Source: a virus (lineage: Duplodnaviria; Heunggongvirae; Uroviricota; Caudoviricetes). Taken from it: a DNA stretch of 34,779 nt. The stretch lies in IMG/VR virus record IMGVR_UViG_2718218308_000002; one strand, 5' to 3'. Made by a program: the position numbers and the translations under genes. Under the pieces are notes generated by a model, which was not told the origin of the DNA, searched no databases, and worked only from the letters and a program-made list of their open reading frames with translations. This document shows, piece by piece, positions 4,669 through 34,258 of the stretch (position 1 is its first letter; every line of letters begins with the position of its first letter).

Positions 4669-8070
<3,402 letters not shown>

Positions 8071-14509: not shown

Positions 14510-14538
14510 CAGTTTTAACCCGTCTACAGGTTTTAAGT

Positions 14539-15596
14539 GGCTTTGTTGAATAAATCGAACTTTTGCTGAGTTGAAGGATCAGATCACGTATCTTCCCGAC
14601 AACGCAGACCGTTCCGTGGCAAAGCAAAAGTTCAAAATCACCAACTGGCCCACCTACAATAAAGCCCTCATCAACCGTGGCTCCATAACTTTCTGGCTGG
14701 ATGAGGAAGCTATTCAGGCCTGGTATGAGTCGGCAACGCCTTCATCACGGGGAAGACCTCAGCGCTATTCTGATCTCGCCATCACCACCGTTCTGGTCAT
14801 TAAACGCGTGTTCAGGTTGACCCTGCGGGCTGCACAGGGTTTTATTGATTCCATTTTTACACTGATGAATGTTCCGTTGCGCTGCCCGGATTACACCAGT
14901 GTCAGCAAGCGCGCAAAGTCGGTTAATGTCAGTTTCAAAACGTTCACCCGGGGTGAAATCGCGCATCTGGTGATTGATTCCACCGGGCTGAAGGTCTTTG
15001 GTGAAGGCGAATGGAAAGTCAAAAAACACGGCAAAGAACGCCGTCGTATATGGCGAAAGTTGCATCTGGCAGTTGACAGCAAAACACATGAAATCATCTG
15101 TGCAGACCTGTCGCTGAACAATGTGACGGACTCAGAAGCCTTCCCGGGTCTTATCCGGCAGACTCACAGAAAAATCAGGGCAGCATCGGCAGACGGCGCT
15201 TACGACACCCGGCTCTGTCACGATGAACTGCGGCGTAAGAAAATCAGCGCGCTTATCCCTCCCCGAAAAGGTGCGGGTTACTGGCCCGGTGAATATGCAG
15301 ACCGTAACCGTGCAGTGGCTAATCAGCGAATGACCGGGAGTAATGCGCGGTGGAAATGGACAACAGATTACAACCGTCGCTCGATAGCGGAAACGGCGAT
15401 GTACCGGGTAAAACAGCTGTTCGGGGGGTTCACTGACGCTGCGTGACTACGATGGTCAGGTTGCGGAGGCTATGGCCCTGGTACGAGCGCTGAACAAAAT
15501 GACGAAAGCAGGTATACCTGAAAGCGTGCGTATTGCCTGAAAACACAACCCGCTACGGGGGAGACTTACCCGAAATCTGATTTATTCAACAAAGCC
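14539..15596 (+). mobile_element. IS903-like insertion sequence (IS5 family), copy 1, 1058 bp, no target-site duplication
   Basis: Terminal inverted repeats GGCTTTGTTGAATAAATC at both ends; flanks GTTTTAAGT and GTTGAAGCC differ; sequence recalled as the Tn903/IS903 ends. Confidence 0.85.
14571..15446 (+). CDS. tnp: IS903-like transposase, 291 aa; C-terminal ~33 codons continue in the +1 frame to 15540
   Basis: DDE-family motifs ([21 protein letters not shown]-like [14 protein letters not shown]); identical protein in all three copies. Confidence 0.85.
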   Translation: MKDQITYLPDNADRSVAKQKFKITNWPTYNKALINRGSITFWLDEEAIQAWYESATPSSRGRPQRYSDLAITTVLVIKRVFRLTLRAAQGFIDSIFTLMNVPLRCPDYTSVSKRAKSVNVSFKTFTRGEIAHLVIDSTGLKVFGEGEWKVKKHGKERRRIWRKLHLAVDSKTHEIICADLSLNNVTDSEAFPGLIRQTHRKIRAASADGAYDTRLCHDELRRKKISALIPPRKGAGYWPGEYADRNRAVANQRMTGSNARWKWTTDYNRRSIAETAMYRVKQLFGGFTDAA

Positions 15597-15713
15597 GTTG
15601 AAGCCATTAAGCCAAGCATTAGCCATTAAAACAGCTTTATTTTTAGCGTTCTCACTCGTCCAGGCGTTCCCAAACGCATTATCAACGTCATCACAGGTCA
15701 CGTAAGTGATCAT
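15597..15713 (-). pseudogene. 5' fragment (39 codons) of a phage gene cut by IS903-like copy 1
   Basis: ATG at 15713 with GGAG RBS; open frame MITYVTCDDVDNAFGNAWTSENAKNK... runs straight into the IS boundary. Confidence 0.35.
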
Positions 15714-15716
15714 GTG

Positions 15717-15893
15717 TTACTCCTGAGTTTTCCAGCCCATAGCCTTCCAGTTGTCAACTTCATCAGGATGAACATTAGCGATAGTTGGTGCGCCGGGAAA
15801 CATCTGATAATCGGTCACCATAACCACTAACTCAATTTGCGTTTTTTGTGCGGCTTCACGCTGTGCTCTTTGCTCTTTAGTTAATCCGGTCAT
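15717..15893 (-). CDS. Hypothetical small protein, 58 aa, downstream of the capsid gene (not in the ORF track)
   Basis: ATG at 15893 preceded by GGAGGG; same strand and tight spacing with neighbouring head genes; function unknown. Confidence 0.4.
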   Translation of the reverse strand: MTGLTKEQRAQREAAQKTQIELVVMVTDYQMFPGAPTIANVHPDEVDNWKAMGWKTQE

Positions 15894-15935
15894 ATGCCCT
15901 CCATTAAAAATGGGGCCGAAGCCCCGTTTGAATGT

Positions 15936-17075
15936 TTAACCAAGAATCAGACAACCATGTGCCGGCTTCACTGATGAAACACCCCATGCCAGTCCAACTT
16001 CATAGCGCACCTGGCGATACTGACGATACAGTGCAATCTGGAACGTAATCCCTGAAATCGGGTCCGTAACATTCATTACATCATCAGCATTATCGCCACC
16101 TTCCGGCATTGCCGGAGTACGGGATGCCAGCAGAAACGCGTTGCGATCAAACGCCATATTTGCAGTAAAGGAGCCAACAACTGTGATTGCAGTATCATCG
16201 GCCAGATCCTGACGCAGTCCGGGCGCTGCAAGAGTAATCAGATTGCTGGTCGCTGCTGCCACAACATACTGATTCGGATCGCCAGCGAACGTAACAATCT
16301 GACCTGCAGAAATACTCCCCGAACCAGTATCAATGGAAATAAGAACATCGCCTTCTTTTTTCTCGCCATTCACGAGATAACCAGTTGCAGCAACCTTTGG
16401 CGCTCGTTTTACACCTGCCGAACTGTGAATATTGAATCCCTCCAGACGCCCCAACACGCCCTCACGCAGTAGCTGTTCAGTGCCGGATTCATTCACTTTA
16501 AACAGTACAGACTGTTTTCCGCGCAAATTAGCAATGGCAGTGGAGCCAAGCACCATCTGCAGATCGGTTGTCGGTGCGCCGTTATCCTCCAGAACCTGAC
16601 GAGCCAGAGCAGCATCAGAAAGATCATCTTTAACACCAAACGGCGTTGTCCCTGCGGTTCCCACGGCGCGGGAAGCACCGAAATACAACGCACCAAGATC
16701 AGCCTCAACCTCGTTTGCAAGGGCGCGAAAAGCCTGCTTGAACTGATCAGCCAGAATGGTGTTGTAAGTCCCTGAAGGGCCAAGAGCCAGTTGTTCTTCA
16801 CCATTCCATTTAACCGGTGCCATTTTGGATTTAGTAATTTTCACATCAACAGTGCCAATATTTTGATCACCGGTATTCGGAGCTGACGGCCCCGGTACGA
16901 TATCTTCGGTTTTCGCCTCAGGCGCAACTGGCGCGGTTACCGTCTGATCTTTTGCTGCGGCGTCAGCTTTTGCGTTTTTTGCTACCGCAGGGATAAAACC
17001 TACCTGCTCACGGGATACAATATCCAGGGCGGTATAAATAGTCGGGATCAACCCGGTCAGGGTATTTCCAGCCAT
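15936..17075 (-). CDS. Major capsid protein, about 380 aa from MAGNTLTG; the ORF track extends it to 17168
   Basis: Position after the scaffold gene; size and composition typical of HK97-fold coat proteins; RBS AAGGA before the internal ATG. Confidence 0.7.
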   Translation of the reverse strand: MAGNTLTGLIPTIYTALDIVSREQVGFIPAVAKNAKADAAAKDQTVTAPVAPEAKTEDIVPGPSAPNTGDQNIGTVDVKITKSKMAPVKWNGEEQLALGPSGTYNTILADQFKQAFRALANEVEADLGALYFGASRAVGTAGTTPFGVKDDLSDAALARQVLEDNGAPTTDLQMVLGSTAIANLRGKQSVLFKVNESGTEQLLREGVLGRLEGFNIHSSAGVKRAPKVAATGYLVNGEKKEGDVLISIDTGSGSISAGQIVTFAGDPNQYVVAAATSNLITLAAPGLRQDLADDTAITVVGSFTANMAFDRNAFLLASRTPAMPEGGDNADDVMNVTDPISGITFQIALYRQYRQVRYEVGLAWGVSSVKPAHGCLILG

Positions 17076-17173
17076 AATTAAATATTCCTTAAAAATTTGC
17101 GTAATTGTGAATAGATGGAGTAATGAGCTATCCAGCCCTGACACCAGCTCCCATCCGGAAGCTGACAAATGTG

Positions 17174-17938
17174 TTAATCAACAATTGTGATACCGTCTTT
17201 CAATGCGTTTTGCTTACCTGCAACATCCAGTGCATCAAAAGCAGAGCGTTTCATCGTTTTCTGACCAACATCATGCTGTGTCGGACGGGAGCCGCCGCCA
17301 TTGTTGCCACTGGCTTTCAGGATGTAGTCTTTCTGAGGGTAATTTTCGACGAGGAACTCCAGCGCCTCATCAAACTGCGCCAGTTCGCCAGGCTTCGCGC
17401 GGGAATAAATTTTGTTGCCGGAAGCGTCATAAGCAACGATCTTCCCTTCTTCCACTTTGAATGCCTGCCCGAAGCGGGCTTGTAATAAATCTGCCGGGAT
17501 CGCAATTTTATCGGCAATATATTTTGAACCCGCAAAACTACCGCCAATCATAGAATCGTAAAGCTGCGTCTCCAGCATCTGAGAGCGTTGCTTTTCTTCA
17601 TCTAATTGCTGCTGAAAATTTTTCGTAATTTCTGCCTTAACCTGGTCAACCTGTCCCGCATCGATCAGCTTTTTCTGGTCGATTTTTGACAGCATTTCCA
17701 GTGCCTCGATCGCCTTCTTCGGGTCTTCGATAGCGGCAAACTTAGCCAGTTTTTCCTCTGCAGCTTCTTTAGCCAGGCGATGATTTTTTGCCTCGCCATT
17801 AAGCTCTGTAATTTTTTTTATCGCCAGCGGTGCATCGAAGCCGATTTCTTTACCATCGTCGTGCACATAAACTGGCAGGCCAGCAGTATCAATTTCTGCG
17901 TATTGTTTTCCGTTAATCTCGACCGTTTTCAGTTTCAT
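17174..17938 (-). CDS. Scaffolding protein, about 254 aa from MKLKTVEING
   Basis: Charged, coiled-coil-rich (AEEKLAKFAA..., QQQLDEEKQRSQ); position between MuF-like gene and capsid. Confidence 0.55.
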   Translation of the reverse strand: MKLKTVEINGKQYAEIDTAGLPVYVHDDGKEIGFDAPLAIKKITELNGEAKNHRLAKEAAEEKLAKFAAIEDPKKAIEALEMLSKIDQKKLIDAGQVDQVKAEITKNFQQQLDEEKQRSQMLETQLYDSMIGGSFAGSKYIADKIAIPADLLQARFGQAFKVEEGKIVAYDASGNKIYSRAKPGELAQFDEALEFLVENYPQKDYILKASGNNGGGSRPTQHDVGQKTMKRSAFDALDVAGKQNALKDGITIVD

Positions 17939-18042
17939 ATTAGTACCTGGTTTAAGTCTTCCGACAGTTACGCTGCTCACCATCCGGATCGCAGCAATAA
18001 AAAAGGCCACCCGAAGGTAGCCTGTTGTAATAAATGATTTAT

Positions 18043-19158
18043 TTAAATCCCTGCTTTTCTGAATACCTGTGCATCACGCTCACGGAGTTGCTTCAGCGTC
18101 AGCCATTCGCCTTTATCGGTGTAAAATTCATCTGGCGACATACCGCCATCCCGAATCAGCTTTGCCCGGGTTTCCCCCACAATCTGTTTTTGTCTGGTGT
18201 AAGGCTGACGCAAAAACCATTCCCTGTAGGTTGTATCTCCGGCCACCACGCCATCCATGCTGGCCCGCTCAGCCGGGGAAATATCACGAACATCAATACC
18301 CAGTTCCTTCGCTGATTTCAGAATGAACGTTTCCGTTGAGCGGCAGCAGAAATGAATTTTTCCCGGCCCATGCAAATAAGGCACACTGTGACCTACAGGT
18401 TTATTATCCAGCGTATATTTGAGGCGATCCCTGATTCGACATTGTGGCGTAGTACGATTATCAAGCGTTGATAACCATTGCTTACCCTTAATCAAATCAT
18501 TATTCGCGCTGGCAAAACTCTCACGGGCAGTAGCAGCAAGATGTCCAACCGCTGTTTTTGCAATGCTGGCCGCATTAGCCCGGCTCATCTGCAATGCACC
18601 ATCCTGAAATCCCTTGCTGACATGTCCCCGAATTTTTCTTGCGATCTGCTCATTGGTATCCCCCAGCAAAAAACCCTGACGCACCGTATTTGTTATGCGT
18701 CTGAGCCGATCCGCCTCAAGATCCAAGGCCCACTCACTGAGCAGTCGTCCCTGGAATGGTCGCGCCATTGCAGCGGCGTAAAGTGCATCAGAAGATATAC
18801 CAACCAGAGGGTGAACATCAGCAACAAAATCAGGTAGCAGAGAATCAAACAGACTTAACTGATAACCAGCCTCATAAATTGCCAGCTCGTTCAGCTCTCC
18901 GGAGAGACTGGTAAACATGCTGTTAATAGCAGCGCGGTTAACCTCTCTGACACTCGCCAGAAGTGACTCCAGGCGCGTAACGGTAAAACTACCAGGATCG
19001 AGGCTGTCCAGTGCTACCAGCAGGCGAGCTGTAAGCTCCGCATCGCTGTCATTCAGTATTTTCACCATTCTGGCAGCCACACCAGTGCTATAGCGGGATA
19101 TCCAGACTGCATGAGCAATTGATTCATCACGCAGCCGTTCATTCACGGTTTGCATCAT
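18043..19158 (-). CDS. Head morphogenesis protein (Mu gpF / SPP1 gp7-like), 371 aa
   Basis: Position after portal; sequence character recalled as the Phage_Mu_F family. Confidence 0.7.
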   Translation of the reverse strand: MMQTVNERLRDESIAHAVWISRYSTGVAARMVKILNDSDAELTARLLVALDSLDPGSFTVTRLESLLASVREVNRAAINSMFTSLSGELNELAIYEAGYQLSLFDSLLPDFVADVHPLVGISSDALYAAAMARPFQGRLLSEWALDLEADRLRRITNTVRQGFLLGDTNEQIARKIRGHVSKGFQDGALQMSRANAASIAKTAVGHLAATARESFASANNDLIKGKQWLSTLDNRTTPQCRIRDRLKYTLDNKPVGHSVPYLHGPGKIHFCCRSTETFILKSAKELGIDVRDISPAERASMDGVVAGDTTYREWFLRQPYTRQKQIVGETRAKLIRDGGMSPDEFYTDKGEWLTLKQLRERDAQVFRKAGI

Positions 19159-19901
19159 TGATTTCCATCAACATTACACTCTGATTTTTTAATTCATCGA
19201 TCACATCCTCTGGACGGGAATCCTGATCGATAAATTTCAACGCCTGCAACACCCGAACCGCATCAATCTGACGTATATCACCGCCCTGACGCAATGACTG
19301 AACAGCCAGCGCGGAGGATGAGTCAAACACCTGGGCAGATACATCCAGTTCAGTGCGCACATCCACATTGCCACCGCAACTCTCTCCGCTCCATTCCGCC
19401 ATTATCTGGAGAATATTATCGAGGGCATCTTCGAGGGAGTTCGCCATTGTATAAAGCGGCGAGTGTTCCTGCATCCGCTCTTCATTAGTCTGATCAACAG
19501 ATTTGGTGGATGTATTTTCAGCCCGCAGAAGTTTAGCGCCGGCATGACGCATCTGATTTTCCAGCTTCTCAAGTGATGTTTCGCCAGATTCTATCGCTGC
19601 GCCACTATGTTCAACATATTCGAGGCCATTTTTTGTTCTGTCCTCAAAAATCGTAGCCGTGGATGCACCAACCGTCAGTTCTTCATTCCTGTCCAGCCCG
19701 TAGGCCACCAGCAATGGAACGCGGGCAACATGAAGAATATTGTCCTGCTCGCTCTGGCTTTGCCAGTGCTTGATATTCAGCAAGCCAAGATTAAGCAATG
19801 GCGGTGTACCACGCATAAACCCTGTTTTCTTCGTATACAGTGTTACCAGAGGAATATCATCACGGCTGGTATTCCATGACTCATGAGGTAATGACTCCAA
19901 C

Positions 19902-20405
19902 TTATTGATAGTGTTTTATGTTCAGATAATGCCCGATGACTTTGTCATGCAGCTCCACCGATTTTGAGAACGACAGCGACTTCCGTCCCAGCCGTGCCAG
20001 GTGCTGCCTCAGATTCAGGTTATGCCGCTCAATTCGCTGCGTATATCGCTTGCTGATTACGTGCAGCTTTCCCTTCAGGCGGGATTCATACAGCGGCCAG
20101 CCATCCGTCATCCATACCACGACCTCAAAGGCCGACAGCAGGCCCAGAAGACGCTCCAGCGTGGCCAGCGTGCGTTCACCGAATACGTGCGCAACAACCG
20201 TCTTCCGGAGCCTGTCATACGCGTAAAACAGCCAGCGCTGGCGCGATTTAGCCCCGACGTATCCCCACTGTTCGTCCATTTCCGCGCAGACGATGACGTC
20301 ACTGCCCGGCTGTATGCGCGAGGTTACCGACTGCGGCCTGAGTTTTTTAAATGGCGGAAAATCGTGTTGAGGCCAACGCCCATAATGCGGGCGGTTGCCC
20401 GGCAT
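19902..20405 (-). CDS. insB: IS1 InsB frame (made as InsAB' by frameshift), 167 aa
   Basis: Sequence [51 protein letters not shown] recognised as IS1 InsB. Confidence 0.95.
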
Positions 20406-20599
20406 CCAACGCCATTCATGGCCATATCAATGATTTTCTGGTGCGTACCGGGTTGAGAAGCGGTGTAAGTGAACTGCAGTTGCCATGTTTTACGGCAGTG
20501 AGAGCAGAGATAGCGCTGATGTCCGGCGGTGCTTTTGCCGTTACGCACCACCCCGTCAGTAGCTGAACAGGAGGGACAGCTGATAGAAACAGAAGCCAC
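20324..20599 (-). CDS. insA: IS1 InsA, 91 aa
   Basis: Sequence [42 protein letters not shown] recognised as IS1 InsA. Confidence 0.95.
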
Positions 20600-21324
20600 T
20601 GGAGCACCTCAAAAACACCATCATACACTAAATCAGTAAGTTGGCAGCATCACCGACTCATGAAGCATCCAGACAGATTCGCCATTAGTACCTTCGCTGC
20701 GTCGATAAATTTCTACTCGACGGGGCATAATATGGCGGATCTGCTCCACCTTCTTCTGCCCGAAATCATCACCATCAATAATGATGACCTCTTTTATACG
20801 CAAATCAGTGAGAACAACTTTCCCTTTTTCAACTTTCGATTTCCATCCAATAACCTGGCGTGGATTCAGCATCGTAACGTACGGGCGACCACCGGCCGCG
20901 TTTTCATCGGCTTTTGTCCGAATCTCGTTCATATCCGTTCGTGGATAGTCCACCAGCGCATGTGCCACACCATACTGAAATGCGAGACTGAAAAATTGCT
21001 GCGCCCACACATCCAGTCGGCTCCCCTCCATGTCGATATTTTCTGCATATTCCCTGATTTTTTCCGGCGTTTCCTCACTCAATACTGTCGGCTCTGCAAA
21101 TATGCGCCCAATATTTTGTTTGATGCTTTCTTCATACACAGGAAGTAACGTAGCCACAGACAGGCGTTTTTTATAAGCGTCTTCATCTTCATTAGGCCAT
21201 TTGGGGAGATAATTTTCCCCCTGCCTGCGCATTTCAAGCGTACCGCCCATCAATGCGTCGTTAATATCCCACGCCTCCAGCATATCGTTATAGTCGAGGT
21301 TGGGTGTTGATATATCAGCCATAA

Positions 21325-22635
21325 TTAAATCCGAAGTGATGTGACTCTTCCGGTCGGTTTGACAATAGGGAATTGCTTAACGATGAAATAACCTCCGGCA
21401 TCATTCGGGTGATCATTGCCAGATTTTTTATCAGGCTCCCCCTTATCATCCCAGACCTGTTGCTCCAGAGATTCGGCATATACCGGACAACGCTTCACAT
21501 TAACTTTATAGCGACGCTCACCATTGGCATTGCAGAACATTGCATTCATTGAGTTAACGCGATCTTTTACTGGCGGGTTCGAGCTGTTCACCACAACGTT
21601 AAAACCTGCCTGCTTAAGCTGGGCTATATCCGTCGTACTTGCGTTACTTGATTTTCTGGAATCTCCGGAAGCATCTGGATAAATATAAATCTCCCTCACT
21701 TTCCGGTAATCATGCCCGTCATACAGCCAGAAGCGTTCTTTAATGAGGCGGATCATATCCGGCGTATCGTAGGCATTGATGATTTCAGTTACCGCACATG
21801 GAAGCCCCAAACGCAGCACATGGACGATTCCCGCCATCTTTCCAACGTTAAAATCCATCCCAATATAAATCGGCTCCCCTGGCTGCTCCACTTCTTCGCA
21901 ATTATTCAGTTTCCGGTCAAACTGATGGTAAACAGTACCACTTGTCAGGTTAGTAAACCGTCCTAGAAGATAGGCTTTAATCAGCTCTGGAGGGTATGAT
22001 TCAAGAAGTGAAGGAATGTAATCTGCTGGCAGGTTCTTTTCATTATCGAAAGTAGATGCCTGCACCAGACCATACAGTGAGGCCAGCTCTGTTTTTTCAC
22101 GCACGGCTTTAACAAACTGCTCGTAGACAAATTTGAATCCTTCCGGCGTGGTTGTAACGTCAATACCGTTGCGAAGTCCATCAATCTTATAACGCATACG
22201 CGCAATTATCTTGCGCCACGCCGTTCTGGCTTTTTCCTTCGGCAAAATGTCCAGTTCATCCACCAGCGCATTACCAATTTTGAAACCGACGATCGTTTGT
22301 GGCTTCTCCATCGATCTGCAGATAGTGGTTCCCCGATACTGGCGTCCGTAATAAAAGTGAACCTCTTTATTTCCCTCATTAATTTTTACGTTCAATCCCC
22401 AGTCAGCAGCAACTTCTTCCACTGTAGGGTAAAAAATATCGCGAATTTGGGGATACGTTGGCGCAAAATATCCCTGATTTATACCTGGATGCTCCCAAAT
22501 CCCCTTGCATATGCCGCCACACCCAACCCATGTTTTGCCCGAGCCAAAACCAGCAATATAGGCTTTAAATTTATGGGGCATTGAAAGAAATCGCGCCTGA
22601 GGCACATTAAGCGTCGGAGAGATCATCTTCATCAC
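21325..22635 (-). CDS. terL: Terminase large subunit, 436 aa
   Basis: Walker A AGFGSGKT, Walker B-like LVDELD, C-terminal nuclease-like acidic motifs (IGMDFN, YPDASG); position before portal. Confidence 0.85.
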   Translation of the reverse strand: MMKMISPTLNVPQARFLSMPHKFKAYIAGFGSGKTWVGCGGICKGIWEHPGINQGYFAPTYPQIRDIFYPTVEEVAADWGLNVKINEGNKEVHFYYGRQYRGTTICRSMEKPQTIVGFKIGNALVDELDILPKEKARTAWRKIIARMRYKIDGLRNGIDVTTTPEGFKFVYEQFVKAVREKTELASLYGLVQASTFDNEKNLPADYIPSLLESYPPELIKAYLLGRFTNLTSGTVYHQFDRKLNNCEEVEQPGEPIYIGMDFNVGKMAGIVHVLRLGLPCAVTEIINAYDTPDMIRLIKERFWLYDGHDYRKVREIYIYPDASGDSRKSSNASTTDIAQLKQAGFNVVVNSSNPPVKDRVNSMNAMFCNANGERRYKVNVKRCPVYAESLEQQVWDDKGEPDKKSGNDHPNDAGGYFIVKQFPIVKPTGRVTSLRI

Positions 22636-23701
22636 TCCTTACTCTGGCATCAACCACATTAATATTGATCGCCACAGGCTGGGGATGTTCATTATCTTCC
22701 ACCGTTTCGATCTCTTTGCGCAGCTTCTGGTTTTCCATTCTGCGCCGTTCAATTTCCAGTTCCTGTAGCCGTTTATCTGCACATAAAGCCCCGCCAGCAG
22801 AAAACAAACGCAACAATTCACGCCGGGCGGCAGCCTTATCCTCCAGCAGGATCTCAACGCCGAATTTTCCGAATTTTGCCCCTGCATATAATTGCCGCGC
22901 ATCCCCATCAAGCAGAGTGGTATCAGCCATATAAAGCTGTCCCGTTCCCTCACCGCAGCACTTCGGGCAGTCCGGATTGGGTATGGCGTTATCAACAAAG
23001 CCGAGGCCTCCATATTCCGGTTCGGATTTGCCATCTCTGGAAGCCTGCGCCGCTGCCTTGTCGAATTCTGCTATATCGCGCCACTGGTAGAGATGATTCT
23101 CGCCCCAGCAATAACGGCAGTTAACACGGCGAAATTGTGCAAGCTGATTGGGGTCGGCCAGGACAATAGCCATCAACTGACTCACTAGTAAATCCAGGTC
23201 TGCGGTATAGCGTTTCTGGTACTGATTGCGGAAGTAGCTGATAGCGCGAAAAACCCTGGCATTTCTAAGCATACGACTGGCGTTGCTGTTAGCTGTCGCA
23301 CCTTGCCCCTCATAACCGGCTAGTCGGTACGCCTCTGTCGGCTTTTTACCCTGAGCAACAAGCATCGCAAACTTAGCCTGCTGGTCAGAAATGCCGAATT
23401 CATCGGGACAGAACGAAAATTCCTCCGCGTCGCCCTCATTCAGGCCCGCATCGAATACTGGCTTTTTTTCCTGAGATTTTTCGTTCCGCTTTTGTGCAGT
23501 CTGCGCAGATTTTTTCTGCGCACTTTTTTGCGCAGTTTTGCACATTTCTGTCTGCGCATTTTTCGGAGTTTTTTTGATGTAACGACGGGCTGTTGCGTAA
23601 TTCAGTCCCCTTGCTTCACACCATGCCACCGGAGATATACCGGAGCGGGTGTATTCAGCAATATACTCCTGCTGCAACGCCCCCCAGTCCGGTCTGCTCA
23701 T
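22607..23701 (-). CDS. terS: Putative terminase small subunit, 364 aa
   Basis: N-terminal HTH-like region, Lys/Gln-rich linker, Cys cluster; directly upstream of and overlapping terL. Confidence 0.55.
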   Translation of the reverse strand: MSRPDWGALQQEYIAEYTRSGISPVAWCEARGLNYATARRYIKKTPKNAQTEMCKTAQKSAQKKSAQTAQKRNEKSQEKKPVFDAGLNEGDAEEFSFCPDEFGISDQQAKFAMLVAQGKKPTEAYRLAGYEGQGATANSNASRMLRNARVFRAISYFRNQYQKRYTADLDLLVSQLMAIVLADPNQLAQFRRVNCRYCWGENHLYQWRDIAEFDKAAAQASRDGKSEPEYGGLGFVDNAIPNPDCPKCCGEGTGQLYMADTTLLDGDARQLYAGAKFGKFGVEILLEDKAAARRELLRLFSAGGALCADKRLQELEIERRRMENQKLRKEIETVEDNEHPQPVAININVVDARVRSDEDDLSDA

Positions 23702-23704
23702 CAG

Positions 23705-25608: not shown

Positions 25609-25624
25609 ACAGCCTTGCTTTATG

Positions 25625-25659
25625 AATAAAACGCACCCCAGCAGCCAGTGCTACTGGGG
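25625..25659 (-). terminator. Terminator-like hairpin downstream of trkG
   Basis: Minus strand CCCCAG...CTGGGG stem followed by TGCGTTTTATTC. Confidence 0.45.
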
Positions 25660-25745
25660 ACGGAGGGGTTGCTGGTAAAGTTAGGTATTGGATCAATGAG
25701 TGAGTCAACATAATATTAAACTCACAATTATAAATCAGCCATATA

Positions 25746-27203
25746 TTAGGAGCGCCAAAAAAAACCTGAAAACAATATAATAACAGGATAAATTTCAAGG
25801 CGACCAAGAATCATAGCTATGCACATTAAACATTTTGCAATGTCATTAAGCACTCCGAATGACGATGCAGTAGCCCCAAAACCTAATCCCATATTATTAA
25901 TACATGCAGCCACTGTTGCAAATGATGTAAGAAAATCATATCCCATACCATTTAACACCAGTATAAAAAACACCGTGAAGAGAGTATAAAGAAAAAAGAA
26001 ACTCCATACAGACCTCATTACACGATCTGTAACTATCTTCCCTCCTACATTTACACTCAACAACGCTCTGGGATGAGAAAGCTGATTTATCTCGTGTTTG
26101 CTTTGTTTGAAAAGTATAAGAAATCGAAGTGACTTAATTCCACCACAAGTTGAACCTATACATCCCCCAAAGAAACTTGACAACAGCAAAAACACTATCG
26201 TGTGCGTGGGCCAACTTGCATAATCCTGCGTAGCTAAACCATTATCAGTGAGCATGGAGCTGGCAAGAAAAAACGAATGAATAAAACTTCCATGCAAGTC
26301 ATACATACCTATATGCCAGACCTGGAAAGAGGTAACAATGATCACCCCTAAGGCTATTAACAGAAAGAAACGAAGTTCAATATCTCTGATTAAAGGTTTT
26401 ATCGTTTTCCTGCTAATAACAATATACCAAAGAGTGAAGTTGAAAGCCGATAGCAGGGAAAAAGAACCAGCCACCAGCTCAACCAAATAGTTATTAAAAT
26501 ATCCGATACTCTCGCTATGAGTTGAGAAACCACCAAGCGAAACTGTGGAAATCCCGTGACAAATAGCATCAAACAAAGGCATTCCTGCAAGTCTATAACA
26601 GACAATACAAGCAATACCTAATAAAGAATAAGTTATCCACAGTGTCCGTGACGTATCGGCCAGGCGGGGAGTGAGTTTGTCATCCTTAAATGGCCCCGGC
26701 ATTTCTGACTGATAAAGCTTTGCACCACCAATACCCAATAATGGCAATACAGCAACCGCCAGAACAATAACTCCTAAACCACCTATAAAATTTAACTGTG
26801 ACCGATAGTACAAATATGCCCGAGGTAATGAACTAACATCATCAATTACAGTTGCTCCTGTTGTTGTTATTCCAGAAACCCCTTCAAACAGAGCATCAAT
26901 GAACGTTAAATTAAGTTCTGAGTCAATCCATAAAGGGAATGCACTAATAACAGAAAACAAAATCCAAAACATTACAATTATAATAAACCCATCACGGGTA
27001 CGTAATTGAATGCCAGATTTCTTAGTTGTATACCACGCTCCGCCACCAATGCAAAAAAATATAACGAAAGTTATAAAGAAAACGAACAGGCTTTTTTCTT
27101 TATAAAACAATGCTACAACCATTGGTGGCAACATTGAAAGACTATAGAGCCAAACCAGGAACCCACACATATGAGTAACAACTCTTACATGAGATGTATT
27201 CAT
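25746..27203 (-). CDS. trkG: TrkH/TrkG-family potassium uptake protein, about 485 aa from MNTSHV; ORF track extends it to 27221
   Basis: Polytopic membrane protein with TrkH-type motifs (GVSGITTTGATV, LGGFSTH); AT-rich relative to flanking phage genes; prophage-borne like Rac trkG of K-12 (from memory). Confidence 0.9.
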   Translation of the reverse strand: MNTSHVRVVTHMCGFLVWLYSLSMLPPMVVALFYKEKSLFVFFITFVIFFCIGGGAWYTTKKSGIQLRTRDGFIIIVMFWILFSVISAFPLWIDSELNLTFIDALFEGVSGITTTGATVIDDVSSLPRAYLYYRSQLNFIGGLGVIVLAVAVLPLLGIGGAKLYQSEMPGPFKDDKLTPRLADTSRTLWITYSLLGIACIVCYRLAGMPLFDAICHGISTVSLGGFSTHSESIGYFNNYLVELVAGSFSLLSAFNFTLWYIVISRKTIKPLIRDIELRFFLLIALGVIIVTSFQVWHIGMYDLHGSFIHSFFLASSMLTDNGLATQDYASWPTHTIVFLLLSSFFGGCIGSTCGGIKSLRFLILFKQSKHEINQLSHPRALLSVNVGGKIVTDRVMRSVWSFFFLYTLFTVFFILVLNGMGYDFLTSFATVAACINNMGLGFGATASSFGVLNDIAKCLMCIAMILGRLEIYPVIILFSGFFWRS

Positions 27204-27340
27204 ATCTAAATATTCTTTCAATTATAACCACCTTGCTGCAATATTATGATTATACTGTATAAAATTTAACTCCTCTTAGATCTTACTTCACTGTTCCTTA
27301 TGAAACAATCATCAAAATGAATCATATTGTAGTTAAGATT

Positions 27341-27817
27341 TTACTTTAAACACTGCTCGGTTATGTATTGCTGAGCACCTTCAAGTTGGGCCTGCATCAT
27401 TACCAGTCGTTCCCGGAGGGTGAAATAATCCCGTTCAGCGGTGTCTGCCAGTCGGGGGGAGGCTGCATTATCCACGCCGGAGGCGGTGGTGGCTTCACGC
27501 ACTGACTGACAGACTGCTTTGATGTGCAACCGACGACGACCAGCGGCAACATCATCACGCAGAACATCATTTTCAGCTTTCGCATCAGCTAACTCCTTCG
27601 TGTATTTTGCATCGAGCGCAGCAACATCACGCTGACGCATCTGCATGTCAGTAATTGCCGCGTTCGCCAGCTTCAGTTCTCTGGCATTTTTGTCGCGCTG
27701 TTCTTTGTAGGCGATGGCGTTATCACGGTAATGATTAACACCCCATGACAGGCAGACGACGATGCAGATAACCAGAGCGGAGATAATCGCGGTTACTCTG
27801 TTCATTGCTGACCCCAC
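27341..27817 (-). CDS. Rz: Rz i-spanin, 158 aa (possibly starting at MNRV)
   Basis: N-terminal TM anchor, coiled-coil periplasmic domain; follows endolysin; contains Rz1 in the +1 frame. Confidence 0.8.
27400..27585 (-). CDS. Rz1: Rz1 o-spanin lipoprotein, 61 aa, embedded in Rz
   Basis: Lipobox VVGC, proline-rich mature region [15 protein letters not shown]. Confidence 0.75.
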
Positions 27818-28186
27818 AAACAGATTTCACGCTCAATCTCACGACGAGTCATGAGACCTTTCCATTGCTTACCGCCAGCATATGTCCAGCGACGTAGCTG
27901 ATCACATGCGCCTTTGATATCGCCCTGGTTTATTTTGCGAAGAAGCGTCGATGTTCTGAAATTGCCAGCACCCACGTTGTAAACGAATGAGTAAAGAGCG
28001 CCGCGCGTTGTTTCCGGTATATCGACTTTGATGTACGGGTTAATTTGTCTGGCGACCGTGGCAAGGTCTTTATTCAAGAGTGTTTTGCATTCTGCTTTGG
28101 TATACGTTTTACCGAGCATGATGTCTTTTCCTGTATGCCCGTGACATACAGTCCATACACCAACAATATCTTTGTATGGTATGTAG

Positions 28187-29244
28187 GGCTTTGTTGAATA
28201 AATCGAACTTTTGCTGAGTTGAAGGATCAGATCACGTATCTTCCCGACAACGCAGACCGTTCCGTGGCAAAGCAAAAGTTCAAAATCACCAACTGGCCCA
28301 CCTACAATAAAGCCCTCATCAACCGTGGCTCCATAACTTTCTGGCTGGATGAGGAAGCTATTCAGGCCTGGTATGAGTCGGCAACGCCTTCATCACGGGG
28401 AAGACCTCAGCGCTATTCTGATCTCGCCATCACCACCGTTCTGGTCATTAAACGCGTGTTCAGGTTGACCCTGCGGGCTGCACAGGGTTTTATTGATTCC
28501 ATTTTTACACTGATGAATGTTCCGTTGCGCTGCCCGGATTACACCAGTGTCAGCAAGCGCGCAAAGTCGGTTAATGTCAGTTTCAAAACGTTCACCCGGG
28601 GTGAAATCGCGCATCTGGTGATTGATTCCACCGGGCTGAAGGTCTTTGGTGAAGGCGAATGGAAAGTCAAAAAACACGGCAAAGAACGCCGTCGTATATG
28701 GCGAAAGTTGCATCTGGCAGTTGACAGCAAAACACATGAAATCATCTGTGCAGACCTGTCGCTGAACAATGTGACGGACTCAGAAGCCTTCCCGGGTCTT
28801 ATCCGGCAGACTCACAGAAAAATCAGGGCAGCATCGGCAGACGGCGCTTACGACACCCGGCTCTGTCACGATGAACTGCGGCGTAAGAAAATCAGCGCGC
28901 TTATCCCTCCCCGAAAAGGTGCGGGTTACTGGCCCGGTGAATATGCAGACCGTAACCGTGCAGTGGCTAATCAGCGAATGACCGGGAGTAATGCGCGGTG
29001 GAAATGGACAACAGATTACAACCGTCGCTCGATAGCGGAAACGGCGATGTACCGGGTAAAACAGCTGTTCGGGGGGTTCACTGACGCTGCGTGACTACGA
29101 TGGTCAGGTTGCGGAGGCTATGGCCCTGGTACGAGCGCTGAACAAAATGACGAAAGCAGGTATACCTGAAAGCGTGCGTATTGCCTGAAAACACAACCCG
29201 CTACGGGGGAGACTTACCCGAAATCTGATTTATTCAACAAAGCC
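28187..29244 (+). mobile_element. IS903-like copy 2, 1058 bp, with 9-bp target-site duplication GGTATGTAG
   Basis: Same terminal inverted repeats as copy 1; identical 9-mers at 28178..28186 and 29245..29253; inserted within the endolysin gene. Confidence 0.9.
28219..29094 (+). CDS. tnp: IS903-like transposase (copy 2), 291 aa, same frameshifted C-terminus
   Basis: Protein identical to copies 1 and 3. Confidence 0.85.
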
Positions 29245-29365
29245 GGTATGTAGCTGTCACCTTCCAGACCATCGTTACCACTTGGGCCAGTGATTAACAC
29301 TGATGCTATAGCAATTGCTCCGCCACCAATAGCAGCAGCAACGACTTTTCGTAATGATGGAGGCA

Positions 29366-29581
29366 TTATTCACCTCTCGCAGCCTTGCGCTTATCTTCTT
29401 TAATCTTGAAATAAAGGTTTGTCAGGTACGTCAGCAGGCCAAATACCAGACTACCCAGCACACCGATTGCAGCCCACTGTGACGGAGTTACTCTATCGAG
29501 CAACTGTAAAAACCAGTAGCCAGCACTGCCTGCGGAGGTGCCGTAGGCAATGCCTGTTGAAATTTTGTCCATGGATTTCAT
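29366..29581 (-). CDS. S: Pinholin (phage 21 S-like), 71 aa with dual-start motif MKSM; ORF track extends it to 29638
   Basis: [26 protein letters not shown]...[17 protein letters not shown] resembles S21 as recalled; GGAGGT RBS; two TM segments. Confidence 0.85.
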
Positions 29582-29680
29582 AGCCTCACCTCCGCACGGA
29601 ACGGATGGCATAGTTATTATGTGTAGGCTTTCAGACACATCAATCAGAGCCTTAATTGATATATATGCTGGAGACGATGC

Positions 29681-29707
29681 AATATAAAAAGCTCGCCGTA
29701 GCGAGCT
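29681..29707 (-). terminator. Terminator-like hairpin downstream of lipoprotein gene 1
   Basis: Minus strand AGCTCGC-tacg-GCGAGCT followed by TTTTTATATT. Confidence 0.45.
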
Positions 29708-29832
29708 AATAAAATGTATTTCTCTGATATTATGTTTATTTGTATTAGCTCAGACTTGACATCACAGGTTTCGTATATAGAACATCATCAAATCTGTCAG
29801 TTTGCTATGAATGAGATATAGTAATTGAAGAG

Positions 29833-30228
29833 CTAACCTCGCATGTCAAAGCCAGATTTCTGAAAATCTCTGTAGACTTCCGGATTGTTGAAGGCCGGAA
29901 ATTTGGCTTTATGAGCTGCGGACTTTATCGCTTCGCAATAGGCTTTATCACCGTTACTGGTAGATATTTTTAACGCCGTGCCATCCTGAGAGAATTCCAT
30001 ATGCAACCTGCATTTTTTCCCTTTCCAGTTATGCGGCTCATCAAGTTTGGCATTAATTGCAGCTCTGATTCCCCGCGCTTGCGCCCCCCATTCATCCTGA
30101 TCATCCCAGCGTCCTGAACTGCAACTACCTGTAGCAGTAGTTTTGTGGCAATCTGAAGGGTGTAAAGGTGTGCATCCCGCAACAAAACCGACCCAAAAAG
30201 TCAACATAACGATTTTCTTTAATCCCAC
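29833..30228 (-). CDS. TolA C-terminal-domain-like lipoprotein 1, 131 aa
   Basis: Signal peptide with lipobox FVAGC; C-terminal region with two Cys and PAFNNPEVYRDFQ aligns with the TolA domain III tail; paralog of the next gene. Confidence 0.7.
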   Translation of the reverse strand: MGLKKIVMLTFWVGFVAGCTPLHPSDCHKTTATGSCSSGRWDDQDEWGAQARGIRAAINAKLDEPHNWKGKKCRLHMEFSQDGTALKISTSNGDKAYCEAIKSAAHKAKFPAFNNPEVYRDFQKSGFDMRG

Positions 30229-30378
30229 TTCTTGCTCCTCAATCCATTAAAATCTCAGCAATAGTAGTTGCTACGTCCGCCACTGGCTCAGAGCTGACTA
30301 TCCGCTAAATTTAGCTCAGTGCCGTAGCTGTGTCAGAACAAACCTAAGCCGAAACCGTTTATTACAAAACAATAAATA

Positions 30379-30807
30379 TCAGGGTTTAAAATCCAGCACC
30401 CCATTTTGAAATACTTTATATACTTCCGGCGAAGGGGGGGCAGGTATATCAGCATTCTTTATCGCATTCATCGCTTCACGACATAAATCGAGGTCTCCAC
30501 TTTCTCTTTTAACCTCCAGTAGAAGGCCATTCGGGGCCATATGCATTCTCAGTGTACACTCTTTTCCTGAATACTTACTCGCATCCCCGAACTGTTTTTC
30601 GATGGCGCTCTTGATTTGATGGGCATACAGACGGATATCCTCACTAACATCAGAAGTACGTTCAGATGAACTCACATACTGTGTCTCTATTGCTTTATCG
30701 GAGTAATATGATGTACGGTCATGATAATTTGTCGATACAGCATCAGTGCACCCGATAATAATCCCACTAATAATCAACGTAAGAATTGATGCGCTACGAA
30801 AACCCAT
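30379..30807 (-). CDS. TolA C-terminal-domain-like lipoprotein 2, 142 aa
   Basis: Lipobox IIGC; C-terminus YAHQIKSAIEKQFGDASKYSGKECTLRMHMAPNGLLLEVKRESGDLDLCREAMNAIKNADIPAPPSPEVYKVFQNGVLDFKP closely parallels the E. coli TolA C-terminus ending ...LDFKP (from memory). Confidence 0.75.
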   Translation of the reverse strand: MGFRSASILTLIISGIIIGCTDAVSTNYHDRTSYYSDKAIETQYVSSSERTSDVSEDIRLYAHQIKSAIEKQFGDASKYSGKECTLRMHMAPNGLLLEVKRESGDLDLCREAMNAIKNADIPAPPSPEVYKVFQNGVLDFKP

Positions 30808-30924
30808 TTTTCCTCACATATGTCATATAGTAAAGGATTATATATACCGTTGTTTTGGACGCTCAAACAGCGAATCAGATCAAATAAAACGCACATTTGT
30901 TAACATTTACACAAAGTCTGCGTG

Positions 30925-30945
30925 GGATATTCTGAAAGAATATCC
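30925..30945. promoter_or_regulatory. Perfect 9-bp inverted repeat with 3-bp spacer (GGATATTCT-GAA-AGAATATCC), operator-like, upstream of lipoprotein gene 2
   Basis: Read directly; lies about 120 bp upstream of the start of lipoprotein gene 2, next to a candidate -35/-10 (TTGAGC ... TATATAAT on the minus strand). Confidence 0.4.
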
Positions 30946-31744
30946 ATAATGTGGAGAGAATCTATTGAAGTGCATGGTGCCGGGTGCCTCCCGGTGAACA
31001 AAATGTTCGTGATACCTGTCGGCGACAGAAAAGGTTAATGGTATCACCCCACCGCACAGGGGGATTCACCATGCAGGAGTTTTCTTAGCAAACTCACTGC
31101 GCGCCCGGCAACTCCCAACCACATAAAATGCGGAGTTTGTGGTATTTATGCATATAACTCGCAGGAATTATCTTAAAAAACTGATGTCGATCCGGATTAA
31201 AAAGAAGCAGGTCATCATCAGATGACTGGAAAAAAGGAAAACAAAAAATACTCATCATACAGTTTTGATTGCAGGGATGAGCCTGCTATGCACAATATGC
31301 AGAATATAAGCAAGATAAAAATATGCAGGCATATTATTTCGGATTTTGTTATTAACACAACCTTTTTAATAATCATTTGGCATACAATAAACCAGCCCAA
31401 AAAGAACCGCCTAAACAGGCGGTTGGTCAATACAAAGGATGCTTCGTCTTTATTATAGTAATCTGAGGCGTCGGGTGTCTTGTATCAGACAACATATTGT
31501 CCCGCTAAACAGCGAATTACAAACCACCCTGCAATGATCTCTCATCTCATTTTATATGAGTTGACGACATCAGGATAACGCATCATCAGCCCCTGCCAAG
31601 AAATATCAAAACTCCCGCCAGCAATGTGTTATCACAATATTGTAAAAAAAACACAGCACCGAAACTATAACTGGTCTCTGTTATAATTTGGAGCAGAAAG
31701 ACCAGTTGCCCAACTAGCAGCATTCTCCCCTGCTTTCCTGACGT

Positions 31745-31772
31745 AAAAAAACCGCATTAAGCGGTTTTTTTA
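31745..31772 (-). terminator. Intrinsic terminator about 80 nt downstream of the putative Q gene (tR'-like)
   Basis: AAAAAAACCGC-ttaat-GCGGTTTTTTT, a symmetric hairpin with U-tract. Confidence 0.55.
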
Positions 31773-31851
31773 CGATGTCCATGTCTGCAATCCGCCTCGC
31801 GATACAGCTTTGCGAAGCATAGCAAAATTGAAGCAGTTTATACGTAAGAAA

Positions 31852-32394
31852 TCAAGCCATTTTCTCAGCAAATGATTCACGCATGGGAATATATAGGGCA
31901 TACTCAGCAACAGCTAACCAATTAGCAATCCGTTTTTCGCATGTGCTAAAACACCACTCTGGGTGTGCATCATTTAGCAATTCAGCCATTTTGCGCTTAG
32001 TCATCCCCCGCCCTTCATAGCGTTGCCGGAGAATGCAAATCAATCCTGGATGCTCTGCCAGCACCTCACTTATGACTCGATCAATACATAACGCCTCTGC
32101 ATCAGTACAATGCGCCAGCCAGCTCTTTTGCTTGCCGTTGATCATCTCTCGCAAAAACGCTTCCAGCTCAGCTTTCTCTATTCCCGCTTTTTTCATTCTG
32201 CGCAGGGCTTCATTAATGGCTGTTTTCGTCAGTTTTTTGGATGCCAACAACTGATTGAACATATTCCCTGACCTGCCACCGCCAATATACGACCAGCGCC
32301 CCCACATACGTAGTTTTCCCTGAATCCAGACACTTTCCAGCGTGGTGAGGCGAAGGTGTTCTCCGCTTTTTCCTGTATTCGTTGGGTAAATCAT
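31852..32394 (-). CDS. Putative late antiterminator Q, 180 aa
   Basis: Position as last gene of the nin-like operon before the terminator and lysis cassette; start overlaps the upstream stop (ATGA); family assignment is positional and tentative. Confidence 0.5.
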   Translation of the reverse strand: MIYPTNTGKSGEHLRLTTLESVWIQGKLRMWGRWSYIGGGRSGNMFNQLLASKKLTKTAINEALRRMKKAGIEKAELEAFLREMINGKQKSWLAHCTDAEALCIDRVISEVLAEHPGLICILRQRYEGRGMTKRKMAELLNDAHPEWCFSTCEKRIANWLAVAEYALYIPMRESFAEKMA

Positions 32395-32681
32395 AAATGA
32401 CCTTTCTTTCTCCAGATTTCTTGTGTGCGAAAAACCCCTTCAGCATGCATCAGGCGCAATTCTTCTTTGGTGTAATCGCTGGTTTTTACCCGCCCGTCGA
32501 TTAGATCGTGGCATGAGCTACAGGCTATCGCCGCCTGCATATCGTGTGGTTTTGTCGCTGTTCCGCACGTCCCCGCCAGCCTGTAATGCGCCAGCACAGA
32601 GGTTTCGGGATTGTGATTGCAGTAGCCAGGGATTCTGATCTGGCACATCTGGCCTTTAGCCGCTTTACGTAAATTCACCAT
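32391..32681 (-). CDS. YbcO-like (DUF1364) putative Zn-binding nuclease, 96 aa
   Basis: Cys-rich 96-aa protein of the nin region (CNHNPE...CGTATKPHD...CSSCHD), recalled as YbcO-like. Confidence 0.6.
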   Translation of the reverse strand: MVNLRKAAKGQMCQIRIPGYCNHNPETSVLAHYRLAGTCGTATKPHDMQAAIACSSCHDLIDGRVKTSDYTKEELRLMHAEGVFRTQEIWRKKGHL

Positions 32682-33157
32682 TACGCAAACTCCAGTAGTT
32701 GTGCGGCCACATTTTCAACTTCCTCCTGAGAGGAGAATTTACGAAACAGAATCCAGTTCCACAGCACATTCAGTACAGATTTATAAACCTGCTGAAACTC
32801 GACTTCGTCCATATTCGCAAAAGCGATGGATTTTGCCCGACGCCCACGGCTACCGTCCGGATAAATATGCTCGGTGTAAAATCCGGCCTGAATGGTTACC
32901 CACTCGCGGAAAGCCTCAAACGACTTTAGCAACGCCGTATCCCGGGTTCTACGAGTCGCAACGGTGTTAAGGTATTGCTCTGCGGCATCACTCAGGGCTG
33001 GCGTGTGTTCCCGACCAACTGATTCGCACAGGTAATCAACGAAACCAGACAGCAGTTCTCGTTCGCGAGGCGTGATCGCCCCACCGACCGGAGTCCAGTA
33101 ATCGAATCCCAGTTGCAGGAGTTTGAAAAAACGCTTGTGGAATGCGTAGTTACGCAC
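32681..33157 (-). CDS. nin-region protein (DUF1367 / YbcN-like), 158 aa from GTG; 5' end possibly removed by IS903-like copy 3
   Basis: Position upstream of YbcO-like and Q; the frame stays open to the IS boundary at 33200. Confidence 0.45.
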   Translation of the reverse strand: MRNYAFHKRFFKLLQLGFDYWTPVGGAITPRERELLSGFVDYLCESVGREHTPALSDAAEQYLNTVATRRTRDTALLKSFEAFREWVTIQAGFYTEHIYPDGSRGRRAKSIAFANMDEVEFQQVYKSVLNVLWNWILFRKFSSQEEVENVAAQLLEFA

Positions 33158-33200
33158 ACGCTTAAAGTCTGCGTGTATCCACTCACCTATTTTGATTTGA

Positions 33201-34258
33201 GGCTTTGTTGAATAAATCAGATTTCGGGTAAGTCTCCCCCGTAGCGGGTTGTGTTTTCAGGCAATACGCACGCTTTCAGGTATACCTGCTTTCGTCATTT
33301 TGTTCAGCGCTCGTACCAGGGCCATAGCCTCCGCAACCTGACCATCGTAGTCACGCAGCGTCAGTGAACCCCCCGAACAGCTGTTTTACCCGGTACATCG
33401 CCGTTTCCGCTATCGAGCGACGGTTGTAATCTGTTGTCCATTTCCACCGCGCATTACTCCCGGTCATTCGCTGATTAGCCACTGCACGGTTACGGTCTGC
33501 ATATTCACCGGGCCAGTAACCCGCACCTTTTCGGGGAGGGATAAGCGCGCTGATTTTCTTACGCCGCAGTTCATCGTGACAGAGCCGGGTGTCGTAAGCG
33601 CCGTCTGCCGATGCTGCCCTGATTTTTCTGTGAGTCTGCCGGATAAGACCCGGGAAGGCTTCTGAGTCCGTCACATTGTTCAGCGACAGGTCTGCACAGA
33701 TGATTTCATGTGTTTTGCTGTCAACTGCCAGATGCAACTTTCGCCATATACGACGGCGTTCTTTGCCGTGTTTTTTGACTTTCCATTCGCCTTCACCAAA
33801 GACCTTCAGCCCGGTGGAATCAATCACCAGATGCGCGATTTCACCCCGGGTGAACGTTTTGAAACTGACATTAACCGACTTTGCGCGCTTGCTGACACTG
33901 GTGTAATCCGGGCAGCGCAACGGAACATTCATCAGTGTAAAAATGGAATCAATAAAACCCTGTGCAGCCCGCAGGGTCAACCTGAACACGCGTTTAATGA
34001 CCAGAACGGTGGTGATGGCGAGATCAGAATAGCGCTGAGGTCTTCCCCGTGATGAAGGCGTTGCCGACTCATACCAGGCCTGAATAGCTTCCTCATCCAG
34101 CCAGAAAGTTATGGAGCCACGGTTGATGAGGGCTTTATTGTAGGTGGGCCAGTTGGTGATTTTGAACTTTTGCTTTGCCACGGAACGGTCTGCGTTGTCG
34201 GGAAGATACGTGATCTGATCCTTCAACTCAGCAAAAGTTCGATTTATTCAACAAAGCC
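33201..34258 (-). mobile_element. IS903-like copy 3 (inverted), 1058 bp, no target-site duplication
   Basis: Same terminal inverted repeats; flanks TTGATTTGA and CGTGGGAGG differ; joins the nin region to the 3' part of the integrase. Confidence 0.85.
33351..34226 (-). CDS. tnp: IS903-like transposase (copy 3), 291 aa, same frameshifted C-terminus
   Basis: Protein identical to copies 1 and 2. Confidence 0.85.
   Translation of the reverse strand: MKDQITYLPDNADRSVAKQKFKITNWPTYNKALINRGSITFWLDEEAIQAWYESATPSSRGRPQRYSDLAITTVLVIKRVFRLTLRAAQGFIDSIFTLMNVPLRCPDYTSVSKRAKSVNVSFKTFTRGEIAHLVIDSTGLKVFGEGEWKVKKHGKERRRIWRKLHLAVDSKTHEIICADLSLNNVTDSEAFPGLIRQTHRKIRAASADGAYDTRLCHDELRRKKISALIPPRKGAGYWPGEYADRNRAVANQRMTGSNARWKWTTDYNRRSIAETAMYRVKQLFGGFTDAA

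Follow-up and report, generated by a model that had tools for sequence, protein, structure and literature searches.

The IS903 group of insertion sequences (IS), part of the IS5 family, includes IS903, IS903B and IS102, for each of which ISfinder gives a length of 1057 bp (quoted in PMC8431375). A 9-bp target duplication is typical of the group, and IS903 moves both replicatively and conservatively (PMC8431375), adjacent deletions being common (PMC11708052). Here, we describe three copies of such an element in the IMG/VR virus record IMGVR_UViG_2718218308_000002, a stretch of 34,779 nucleotides that was analysed over its whole length (hereafter, the window) and that represents a Rac-type prophage. 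Judging by sequence comparison, all three copies are one and the same defective allele of an IS903-group element, an isoform of the NCBI-annotated IS903B, in which one additional G shifts the transposase reading frame. One copy is a plain insertion, and the other two mark deletions that removed a substantial part of the prophage.

The three IS903-group copies and their transposase

The 18-mer GGCTTTGTTGAATAAATC occurs exactly six times in the window, as three inverted pairs, with 0.01 occurrences expected by chance. Each pair bounds, as perfect 18-bp inverted repeats, an element of 1058 bp (copy 1, 14539-15596, plus strand; copy 2, 28187-29244, plus strand; copy 3, 33201-34258, minus strand). 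As a first-pass annotation of this DNA had noticed, the three elements show no difference from one another (100% identity), copies 1 and 2 being in direct and copy 3 in inverted orientation. The nearest public sequences are IS903B-type elements from Klebsiella plasmids and E. coli chromosomes (99.4-99.5% identity), followed by the IS903-annotated copy on p1658/97 (96.3%) and IS102 on pSC101 (94.9%). All the references aligned, namely, three IS903B-type copies together with the p1658/97 and pSC101 elements, share the ends of the window copies, are 1057 bp long and contain an open frame of 307 aa starting with GTG at IS position 78. The same length was found for 41 of 41 full-length copies from GTDB representative genomes, so that the canonical 1057 bp given in the first-pass annotation is borne out by reference sequences, genomic copies and ISfinder alike.

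At 1058 bp, the window copies fall within the size range of the IS5 family/IS903 group (~950-1150 bp) and exceed every reference by one base. Across a comparison that took in six references in all, the sole length difference is a run of six G residues (G6) instead of five (G5) at IS positions 885-890, corresponding to 15423-15428 in copy 1 and 29071-29076 in copy 2, both on the plus strand, and to 33369-33374 in copy 3, on the minus strand (C6 on the plus strand). The single extra base suspected in this run is thus apparent against each reference. Other hallmarks of the group are present, including a 9-bp target-site duplication around copy 2 and a single open reading frame (ORF) for a DDE transposase, which is recognized by the PF13737 (131 bits), PF01609 (105 bits) and NF033579 (328 bits) profiles with scores exceeding the respective cut-offs. 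The intact 307-aa transposase expected of an autonomous element is lacking in three of three copies, the frame being native up to residue 271 and closing after five further aa.

In copy 1, the truncated ORF extends from the canonical GTG start to a stop codon at 15444-15446 (14616-15446, plus strand) and encodes 276 aa, that is, 271 native residues ending with Gly271, followed by FTDAA. The neighbouring frame runs on for 36 residues to 15538-15540; this out-of-frame remnant (15429-15540, plus strand) codes for the C-terminal tail, residues 272-307 of the intact protein, and ends at the original TGA. The equivalent truncated ORFs of copies 2 and 3 occupy 28219-29094 (plus strand) and 33351-34226 (minus strand), respectively. 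The shared frameshift described in the first-pass annotation, with a stop at FGGFTDAA and a +1 frame about 95 bp longer, was therefore recovered, the measured extension being 94 bp. The 291-aa product assigned to it holds only in part: NCBI annotation starts IS903-type transposases at a TTG at IS position 33, which yields 322 aa for the intact protein, and counting from this codon (14571 in copy 1) the truncated product indeed has 291 aa, whereas from the canonical GTG start it has 276 aa. We also checked whether the short frame could simply be the normal product of IS903-group elements, and found that the references uniformly carry the 307-aa ORF in 1057 bp.

Apart from the additional G, the window allele differs from the references by four private substitutions, C51T, D30E, N156K and M300I, located at IS positions 51, 167, 545 and 978 (14589, 14705, 15083 and 15516 in copy 1). 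Relative to the nearest relative, all four are nonsynonymous in the 322-aa frame (H to Y in the N-terminal extension, D30E, N156K and M300I), and M300I falls downstream of the frameshift. The absence of synonymous changes among the four is compatible with relaxed constraint, although the events are too few for significance.

The truncated product still matches PF13737 and PF01609. However, the PF01609 match ends at profile position 176 of 200, with the last 24 positions (177-200) lost, and the NF033579 match ends at position 266 of 289, with the last 23 (267-289) lost. Residues D121, D193, E259 and K266, with no variation across 92 relatives, are retained in the window product, as are Y252 and R255, each conserved in at least 90% of these relatives. 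These residues comprise the D, D, E set and the signature Y-(2)-R-(3)-E-(6)-K, which, following published work on IS903, we take to be the catalytic set of the transposase; the entire set lies upstream of the frameshift. The lost 36-residue tail is present in 92 of the 92 relatives (averaging ~40% identity, down to ~35%), with Q281, E284 and N293 conserved in 96%, 93% and 99% of them, respectively; its mean conservation in this set is 0.475, compared to 0.513 for the whole protein. Furthermore, 12 positions of the tail are invariant among 23 homologues of 70-90% identity. In an AlphaFold model built on the 92-sequence alignment (predicted local distance difference test, pLDDT, 92; predicted template modelling score, pTM, 0.88), the tail forms a 21-residue helix (278-298) and a terminal strand (303-306) with pLDDT of 94-98; a model from the 23 close homologues was discarded due to its pLDDT of 37. 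Given the loss of this conserved, structured helix-plus-strand, we infer that the 276-aa product is very probably inactive or severely impaired. A search of PDB sequences with the transposase yielded merely chance matches to plasminogen activator inhibitor, and a Foldseek comparison with PDB structures yielded generic RNase-H-like integrase/transposase matches alone (best template modelling score ~0.4), neither search pointing to a specific role of the tail, such as multimerization as in Tn5.

Distribution of the six-G run

A 65-bp probe centred on the G run was used for a census of complete-genome records of E. coli. The probe matches 2,245 records at 5,929 places; the best full-length matches are all G5, and none of the 5,929 matching places contains G6 in full context. 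Two E. coli records in the band of at least 99% identity ranked below the full-length G5 matches and were read as partial matches. Likewise, a 40-mer with G6 has no match in 185,579 GTDB species-representative genomes or in metagenome contigs, with the corresponding G5 39-mer, employed as a positive control, matching 53 stretches in the GTDB representative genomes. Exact IS903 39-mers were also encountered on very short contigs of Streptomyces, Microbacterium, Brevibacterium, Actinomadura and other unrelated taxa (L019, L021, L032, L036, L041, L042, L050, L051, L052 and L061), which look like laboratory or vector (Tn903-type) contamination rather than true hosts.

On plasmids, G6 was found in 4 of at least 5,000 records. 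The three G6 plasmid elements that were compared have 93-94%-identical backgrounds and hence represent independent events. One of the G6 plasmid elements (L007) is visibly error-ridden, with 6 gaps. Clean 1058-bp IS903-group elements with G6 are present on two Klebsiella plasmids (L008, NZ_CP098382.1, and L009, NZ_MN891678.1; locus positions 347-1404), in a 94%-identical background and with no other gap; one of them adjoins blaCTX-M-14. These two elements show that the G5 run is a recurrent site of genuine +1 insertion.

At the protein level, the full-length transposases form large clusters, at 322 aa (25,127 and 7,404 members) and at 307 aa (4,952 members), and the truncated IS903-type proteins found in a large protein collection are all singletons, every one of them bearing multiple lesions (for example, P0058 and P0025). 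Taken together, the comparisons indicate that G6 is a derived and rare state of an indel-prone run rather than a feature of the family. Three independent G insertions in the window were rejected as an explanation, given that no more than about 0.1% of the copies have G6.

The same data bear on the possibility that the true elements are G5 and that G6 entered the assembly through miscalling of the homopolymer, or through a repeat consensus, left unpolished or collapsed, that was pasted into all copies. Byte-identical copies are exactly what a consensus pasted at each site would give, repeats being the hardest regions to polish, and indels recur at the G run in visibly poor-quality public data, as illustrated by the 6 gaps of L007 and the multiple frame breaks of P0058 and P0025. 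In addition, the window allele, whether truncated (291 or 276 aa) or repaired (322 or 307 aa), has no exact match in a collection of 15 billion proteins. The rest of the window speaks against an artefact: ~16.3 kb of unique sequence shows zero indels compared to relatives of 99.6-100% identity, and the other multicopy repeat, an IS1 element, is exactly 768 bp long, with its A6 run and both frames intact, which argues against a general tendency of the assembly to homopolymer errors. The clean elements of L008 and L009, for their part, indicate that genuine G insertions do happen at this run. We therefore regard an artefact as unlikely, although, within the window alone, a biological lesion and a homopolymer miscall would look the same.

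Insertion site, deletion junctions and origin of the copies

Copy 2 is flanked by the 9-bp duplication GGTATGTAG, on the left at 28178-28186 and on the right at 29245-29253. This 9-mer is single in the relatives, where it lies inside an uninterrupted endolysin gene, rrrD; in the window, rrrD is split into two pieces (27802-28186 and 29245-29366, minus strand). Comparison of the occupied and empty sites thus identifies copy 2, as originally proposed, as a plain insertion into the endolysin gene, by either a cut-and-paste or a replicative route.

Copies 1 and 3 have no target duplication at their flanks because they are located at deletion junctions, as became clear from mapping against relatives. 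The left flank of copy 1, GTTTTAAGT (14530-14538), follows the Rac-type prophage locus of strain EC23-1020 (L004) as far as position 17458, which lies 29 bp upstream of ydaY, and the right flank, GTTGAAGCC (15597-15605), resumes at position 20001, so that 2,542 bp of the EC23-1020 locus are absent from the window. The missing segment encodes the tail tube, the tail terminator, two complete small head-tail proteins and most of a third one. This junction is shared by no complete E. coli genome. Copy 3 joins a 5'-truncated DUF1367-family gene (32681-33200, minus strand), of which the first 80 nt are gone, the break coinciding with the left edge of copy 3, to nt 716 of intR; the remaining 3' part of intR (nt 716-1236; 34259-34779, plus strand) is 100% identical to relatives over 521 bp, the first 715 nt are missing, and the window ends at the intR stop codon. 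In EC21Z-063, in which the early region is intact, the two junction points are separated by 18,552 bp that include cargo genes, the replication/immunity region, sieB, kilR, racC, recE, recT, ralR, rcbA, xisR and intR nt 1-715; in strain 1506, which is itself degraded, the distance is 9,300 bp. Hence, by comparison with these loci, the IS-associated deletions marked by copies 1 and 3 amount to 2.5 kb and up to 18.6 kb, respectively. The first-pass annotation had placed the loss of head-tail and major tail genes at copy 1, and that of the early region, along with the truncation of int, at copy 3. It also named intact relatives with no genes missing at these points as the finding that would speak against it; the relatives have genes at both positions that the window lacks.

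Alternative arrangements of the three copies find no match in the flanking sequences. Inversion between copies 1 and 3, or replicative inversion, was rejected because there are no reciprocal reverse-complement flanks and the window is colinear with the relatives. Insertion of a composite transposon was rejected as well, given that no pair of copies (1+2, 2+3 or 1+3) has matching outer flanks; the segments inside the IS903 pairs are colinear with the prophage in relatives. The direct copies 1 and 2 flank 12.6 kb with capsid, terminase, trkG and lysis genes, and the inverted copies 2 and 3 flank 3,956 bp in a Tn903-like geometry. Because the outer ends lack a duplication, these units have not moved as such, but either could be mobile if transposase were supplied.

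Identical copies at three sites, one of them with a fresh 9-bp duplication, provide indirect evidence of past transposition. Candidate explanations for the spread of a defective allele to three sites are mobilization in trans with drift to fixation, leaky +1 slippage, gene conversion and the homopolymer artefact considered above. We favour, as the probable account, a frameshifted progenitor that was copied and mobilized in trans by a helper, with IS-associated deletions of the prophage. Under this scenario, one G would have been added to the G5 run, shifting the transposase frame after Gly271, and the three copies would descend from this single progenitor, which is the most likely origin given the shared lesion and the four shared substitutions. 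As their 18-bp ends are intact, the G6 copies could be moved by an intact IS903-group transposase made elsewhere in the cell, potentially from another chromosomal copy or from a plasmid, where IS903-group elements are extremely common. The deletions at copies 1 and 3 could have resulted from transposase-driven adjacent deletion or from homologous recombination between copies in the same orientation, two routes that leave the same footprint and would be indistinguishable in sequence.

Several points weigh against this account. The IS903 transposase reportedly acts preferentially in cis, according to the 1990 work of Derbyshire, Kramer and Grindley. With such a preference, an intact helper should mostly copy itself, and simple trans complementation does not predict that three of three copies are defective. 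No intact IS903-group copy is present within the window, which is the one sequence examined. Moreover, the protein collection contains this exact allele in neither truncated nor repaired form, leaving G6 without independent confirmation, and the functional effect of the truncation is itself derived from conservation and a structural model.

The cis preference would be accommodated if the G6 allele moved by itself, as an attenuated autonomous cis-acting IS, through +1 slippage of the ribosome or RNA polymerase or through residual activity of the 276-aa protein; this would account for G6 in all three copies. Within TTC-GGG-GGG-TTC, a Gly-tRNA positioned on the first GGG can shift one base downstream and pair perfectly again, the next codon being GGU, and the slippage product, ...FGGSLTLRD..., is identical to the reference, that is, the exact wild-type 307-aa protein. 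Leaky, uninduced expression suffices for IS903 transposition in a papillation assay (PMC3003695), which counts for self-mobilization from a low level of product. The position of all catalytic residues upstream of the shift also leaves room for residual activity, although the lost tail is conserved to the same degree as the remainder of the protein, which speaks against activity of the 276-aa form. For a run of 6 nt, slippage would be expected to occur spontaneously at a level well below 1%. Furthermore, G6 is conserved nowhere, arguing against an evolved signal, and a 116-nt segment comprising the surroundings of the shift site and the sequence downstream is no more stably folded than shuffled sequences (z = -1.4, with 16 of 200 shuffles as good), that is, there is no significant downstream RNA structure. 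Self-movement of the allele by any of these means is, in our estimation, an unlikely explanation, and its specific version, in which slippage of the Gly-tRNA on GGG-GGG-U or of RNA polymerase regenerates the exact wild-type transposase in cis to yield a self-mobilizing but strongly attenuated IS903, appears quite unlikely.

The problem of cis action also disappears if the lesion came last, all movement having preceded it: an active G5 element would have made the insertions and deletions, and the extra G would then have spread by gene conversion. The location of the copies within 20 kb of each other and their identity at all other positions favour conversion. Nevertheless, this order of events requires one mutation and at least two otherwise traceless conversion events, the copies lack polymorphisms by which conversion tracts could show, and the explanation is less parsimonious than a single mutated progenitor. 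We consider it very unlikely and retain the copying of one frameshifted progenitor, assisted in trans, as the preferred account.

The Rac-type prophage and comparison with known systems

The gene content and order of the window identify the prophage as a Rac-type lambdoid prophage of E. coli or Shigella. In relatives, intR adjoins ttcA; ydaY and trkG are present; and the whole window is colinear with the Rac-type prophages of strains EC23-1020, 1506 and EC21Z-063, with intR at the ttcA end and ttcA itself beyond the window. The window starts within the gene for tail-fibre assembly, and its end coincides exactly with the stop codon of intR; with the attachment sites and ttcA outside, it looks like an extracted prophage interval.

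The portal (DUF4055) gene is interrupted by the aforementioned IS1 element (19887-20654, minus strand), with intact InsA and InsB frames, which is flanked by the 9-bp duplication GACTCATGA (19878-19886 and 20655-20663). This IS1 is ~95% identical to the IS1 copies of strain 1506, and the portal site is uninterrupted in relatives, indicating that the insertion is a further inactivating hit. Without the tail tube, endolysin, portal, early/immunity region and xis, and with int only partial, the prophage is, as predicted from its gene complement, irreversibly crippled. A module located between the lysis and nin-like genes (29597-33200; TolA-like fragments, DUF1133, DUF1364 and DUF1367) has no match in EC23-1020 but is 99.9% identical to 1506 and EC21Z-063, a case of ordinary lambdoid mosaicism. 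The relatives are degraded in different ways: the Rac-type prophage of strain 1506 (L006) shows IS1-bounded losses of tail and early genes, and that of EC21Z-063 (L012) lost most of the head and tail genes, suggesting that independent erosion of Rac-type prophages is common. Insertion hotspots of IS903 are located in H-NS-bound DNA, including prophages (PMC11335895), and the clustering of IS903 copies in the prophage analysed here fits this bias. The flanks of the copies are mildly AT-rich at most.

The biology involved is already known, comprising a defective isoform of a known IS and textbook IS-mediated erosion of a prophage. For annotation, the transposase should be treated as a frameshifted pseudogene, the prophage as defective and the two gaps as IS903-associated deletions. 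The locus also provides an example of IS-driven prophage domestication, in which four IS copies account for the loss of tail, portal, lysis, early and excision functions, with trkG, a cargo gene, being retained. The wider question is how a defective copy of a cis-acting IS multiplied, and this case could inform on mobilization in trans or on leaky frameshifting. Should self-mobilization of the G6 allele prove true, an IS group in which transposase expression is not normally controlled by frameshifting would have moved, by accident, in the direction of such control.

Compared to IS903B, IS903 and IS102, the window copies have the same 18-bp inverted repeats, the 9-bp duplication (in copy 2) and a single DDE transposase gene, but those elements are 1057 bp long, with G5 and a transposase of 307 aa, whereas the window copies are 1058 bp long, with G6 and a transposase cut at residue 271. 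The programmed frameshifting of the IS1 and IS3 families similarly involves a frame change at a homopolymer that is needed for the full-length transposase; however, these families rely on conserved -1 slippery motifs common to all family members, whereas the window allele would need a +1 shift, at a run that in virtually all other copies is G5, with no shift needed, and that is not accompanied by a stimulatory downstream RNA structure. Unlike in a Tn903-like composite transposon, the outer ends of the IS903 pairs in the window are not duplicated. The deletions resemble those produced by IS903 through adjacent deletion or IS-IS recombination, in that a single IS without a duplication stands where genes are missing and the order of the flanks is preserved; the transposase-driven adjacent route requires an active transposase, which the window copies apparently do not encode. 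Finally, the prophage shares with the defective Rac prophage at ttcA the same integrase, the neighbourhood in relatives, ydaY, trkG, a ynaK remnant and tail genes. The Rac prophage of K-12 and many of its relatives are likewise deletion-ridden remnants, several with their own IS1-associated losses, whereas the pattern of losses in the window is private to this prophage.

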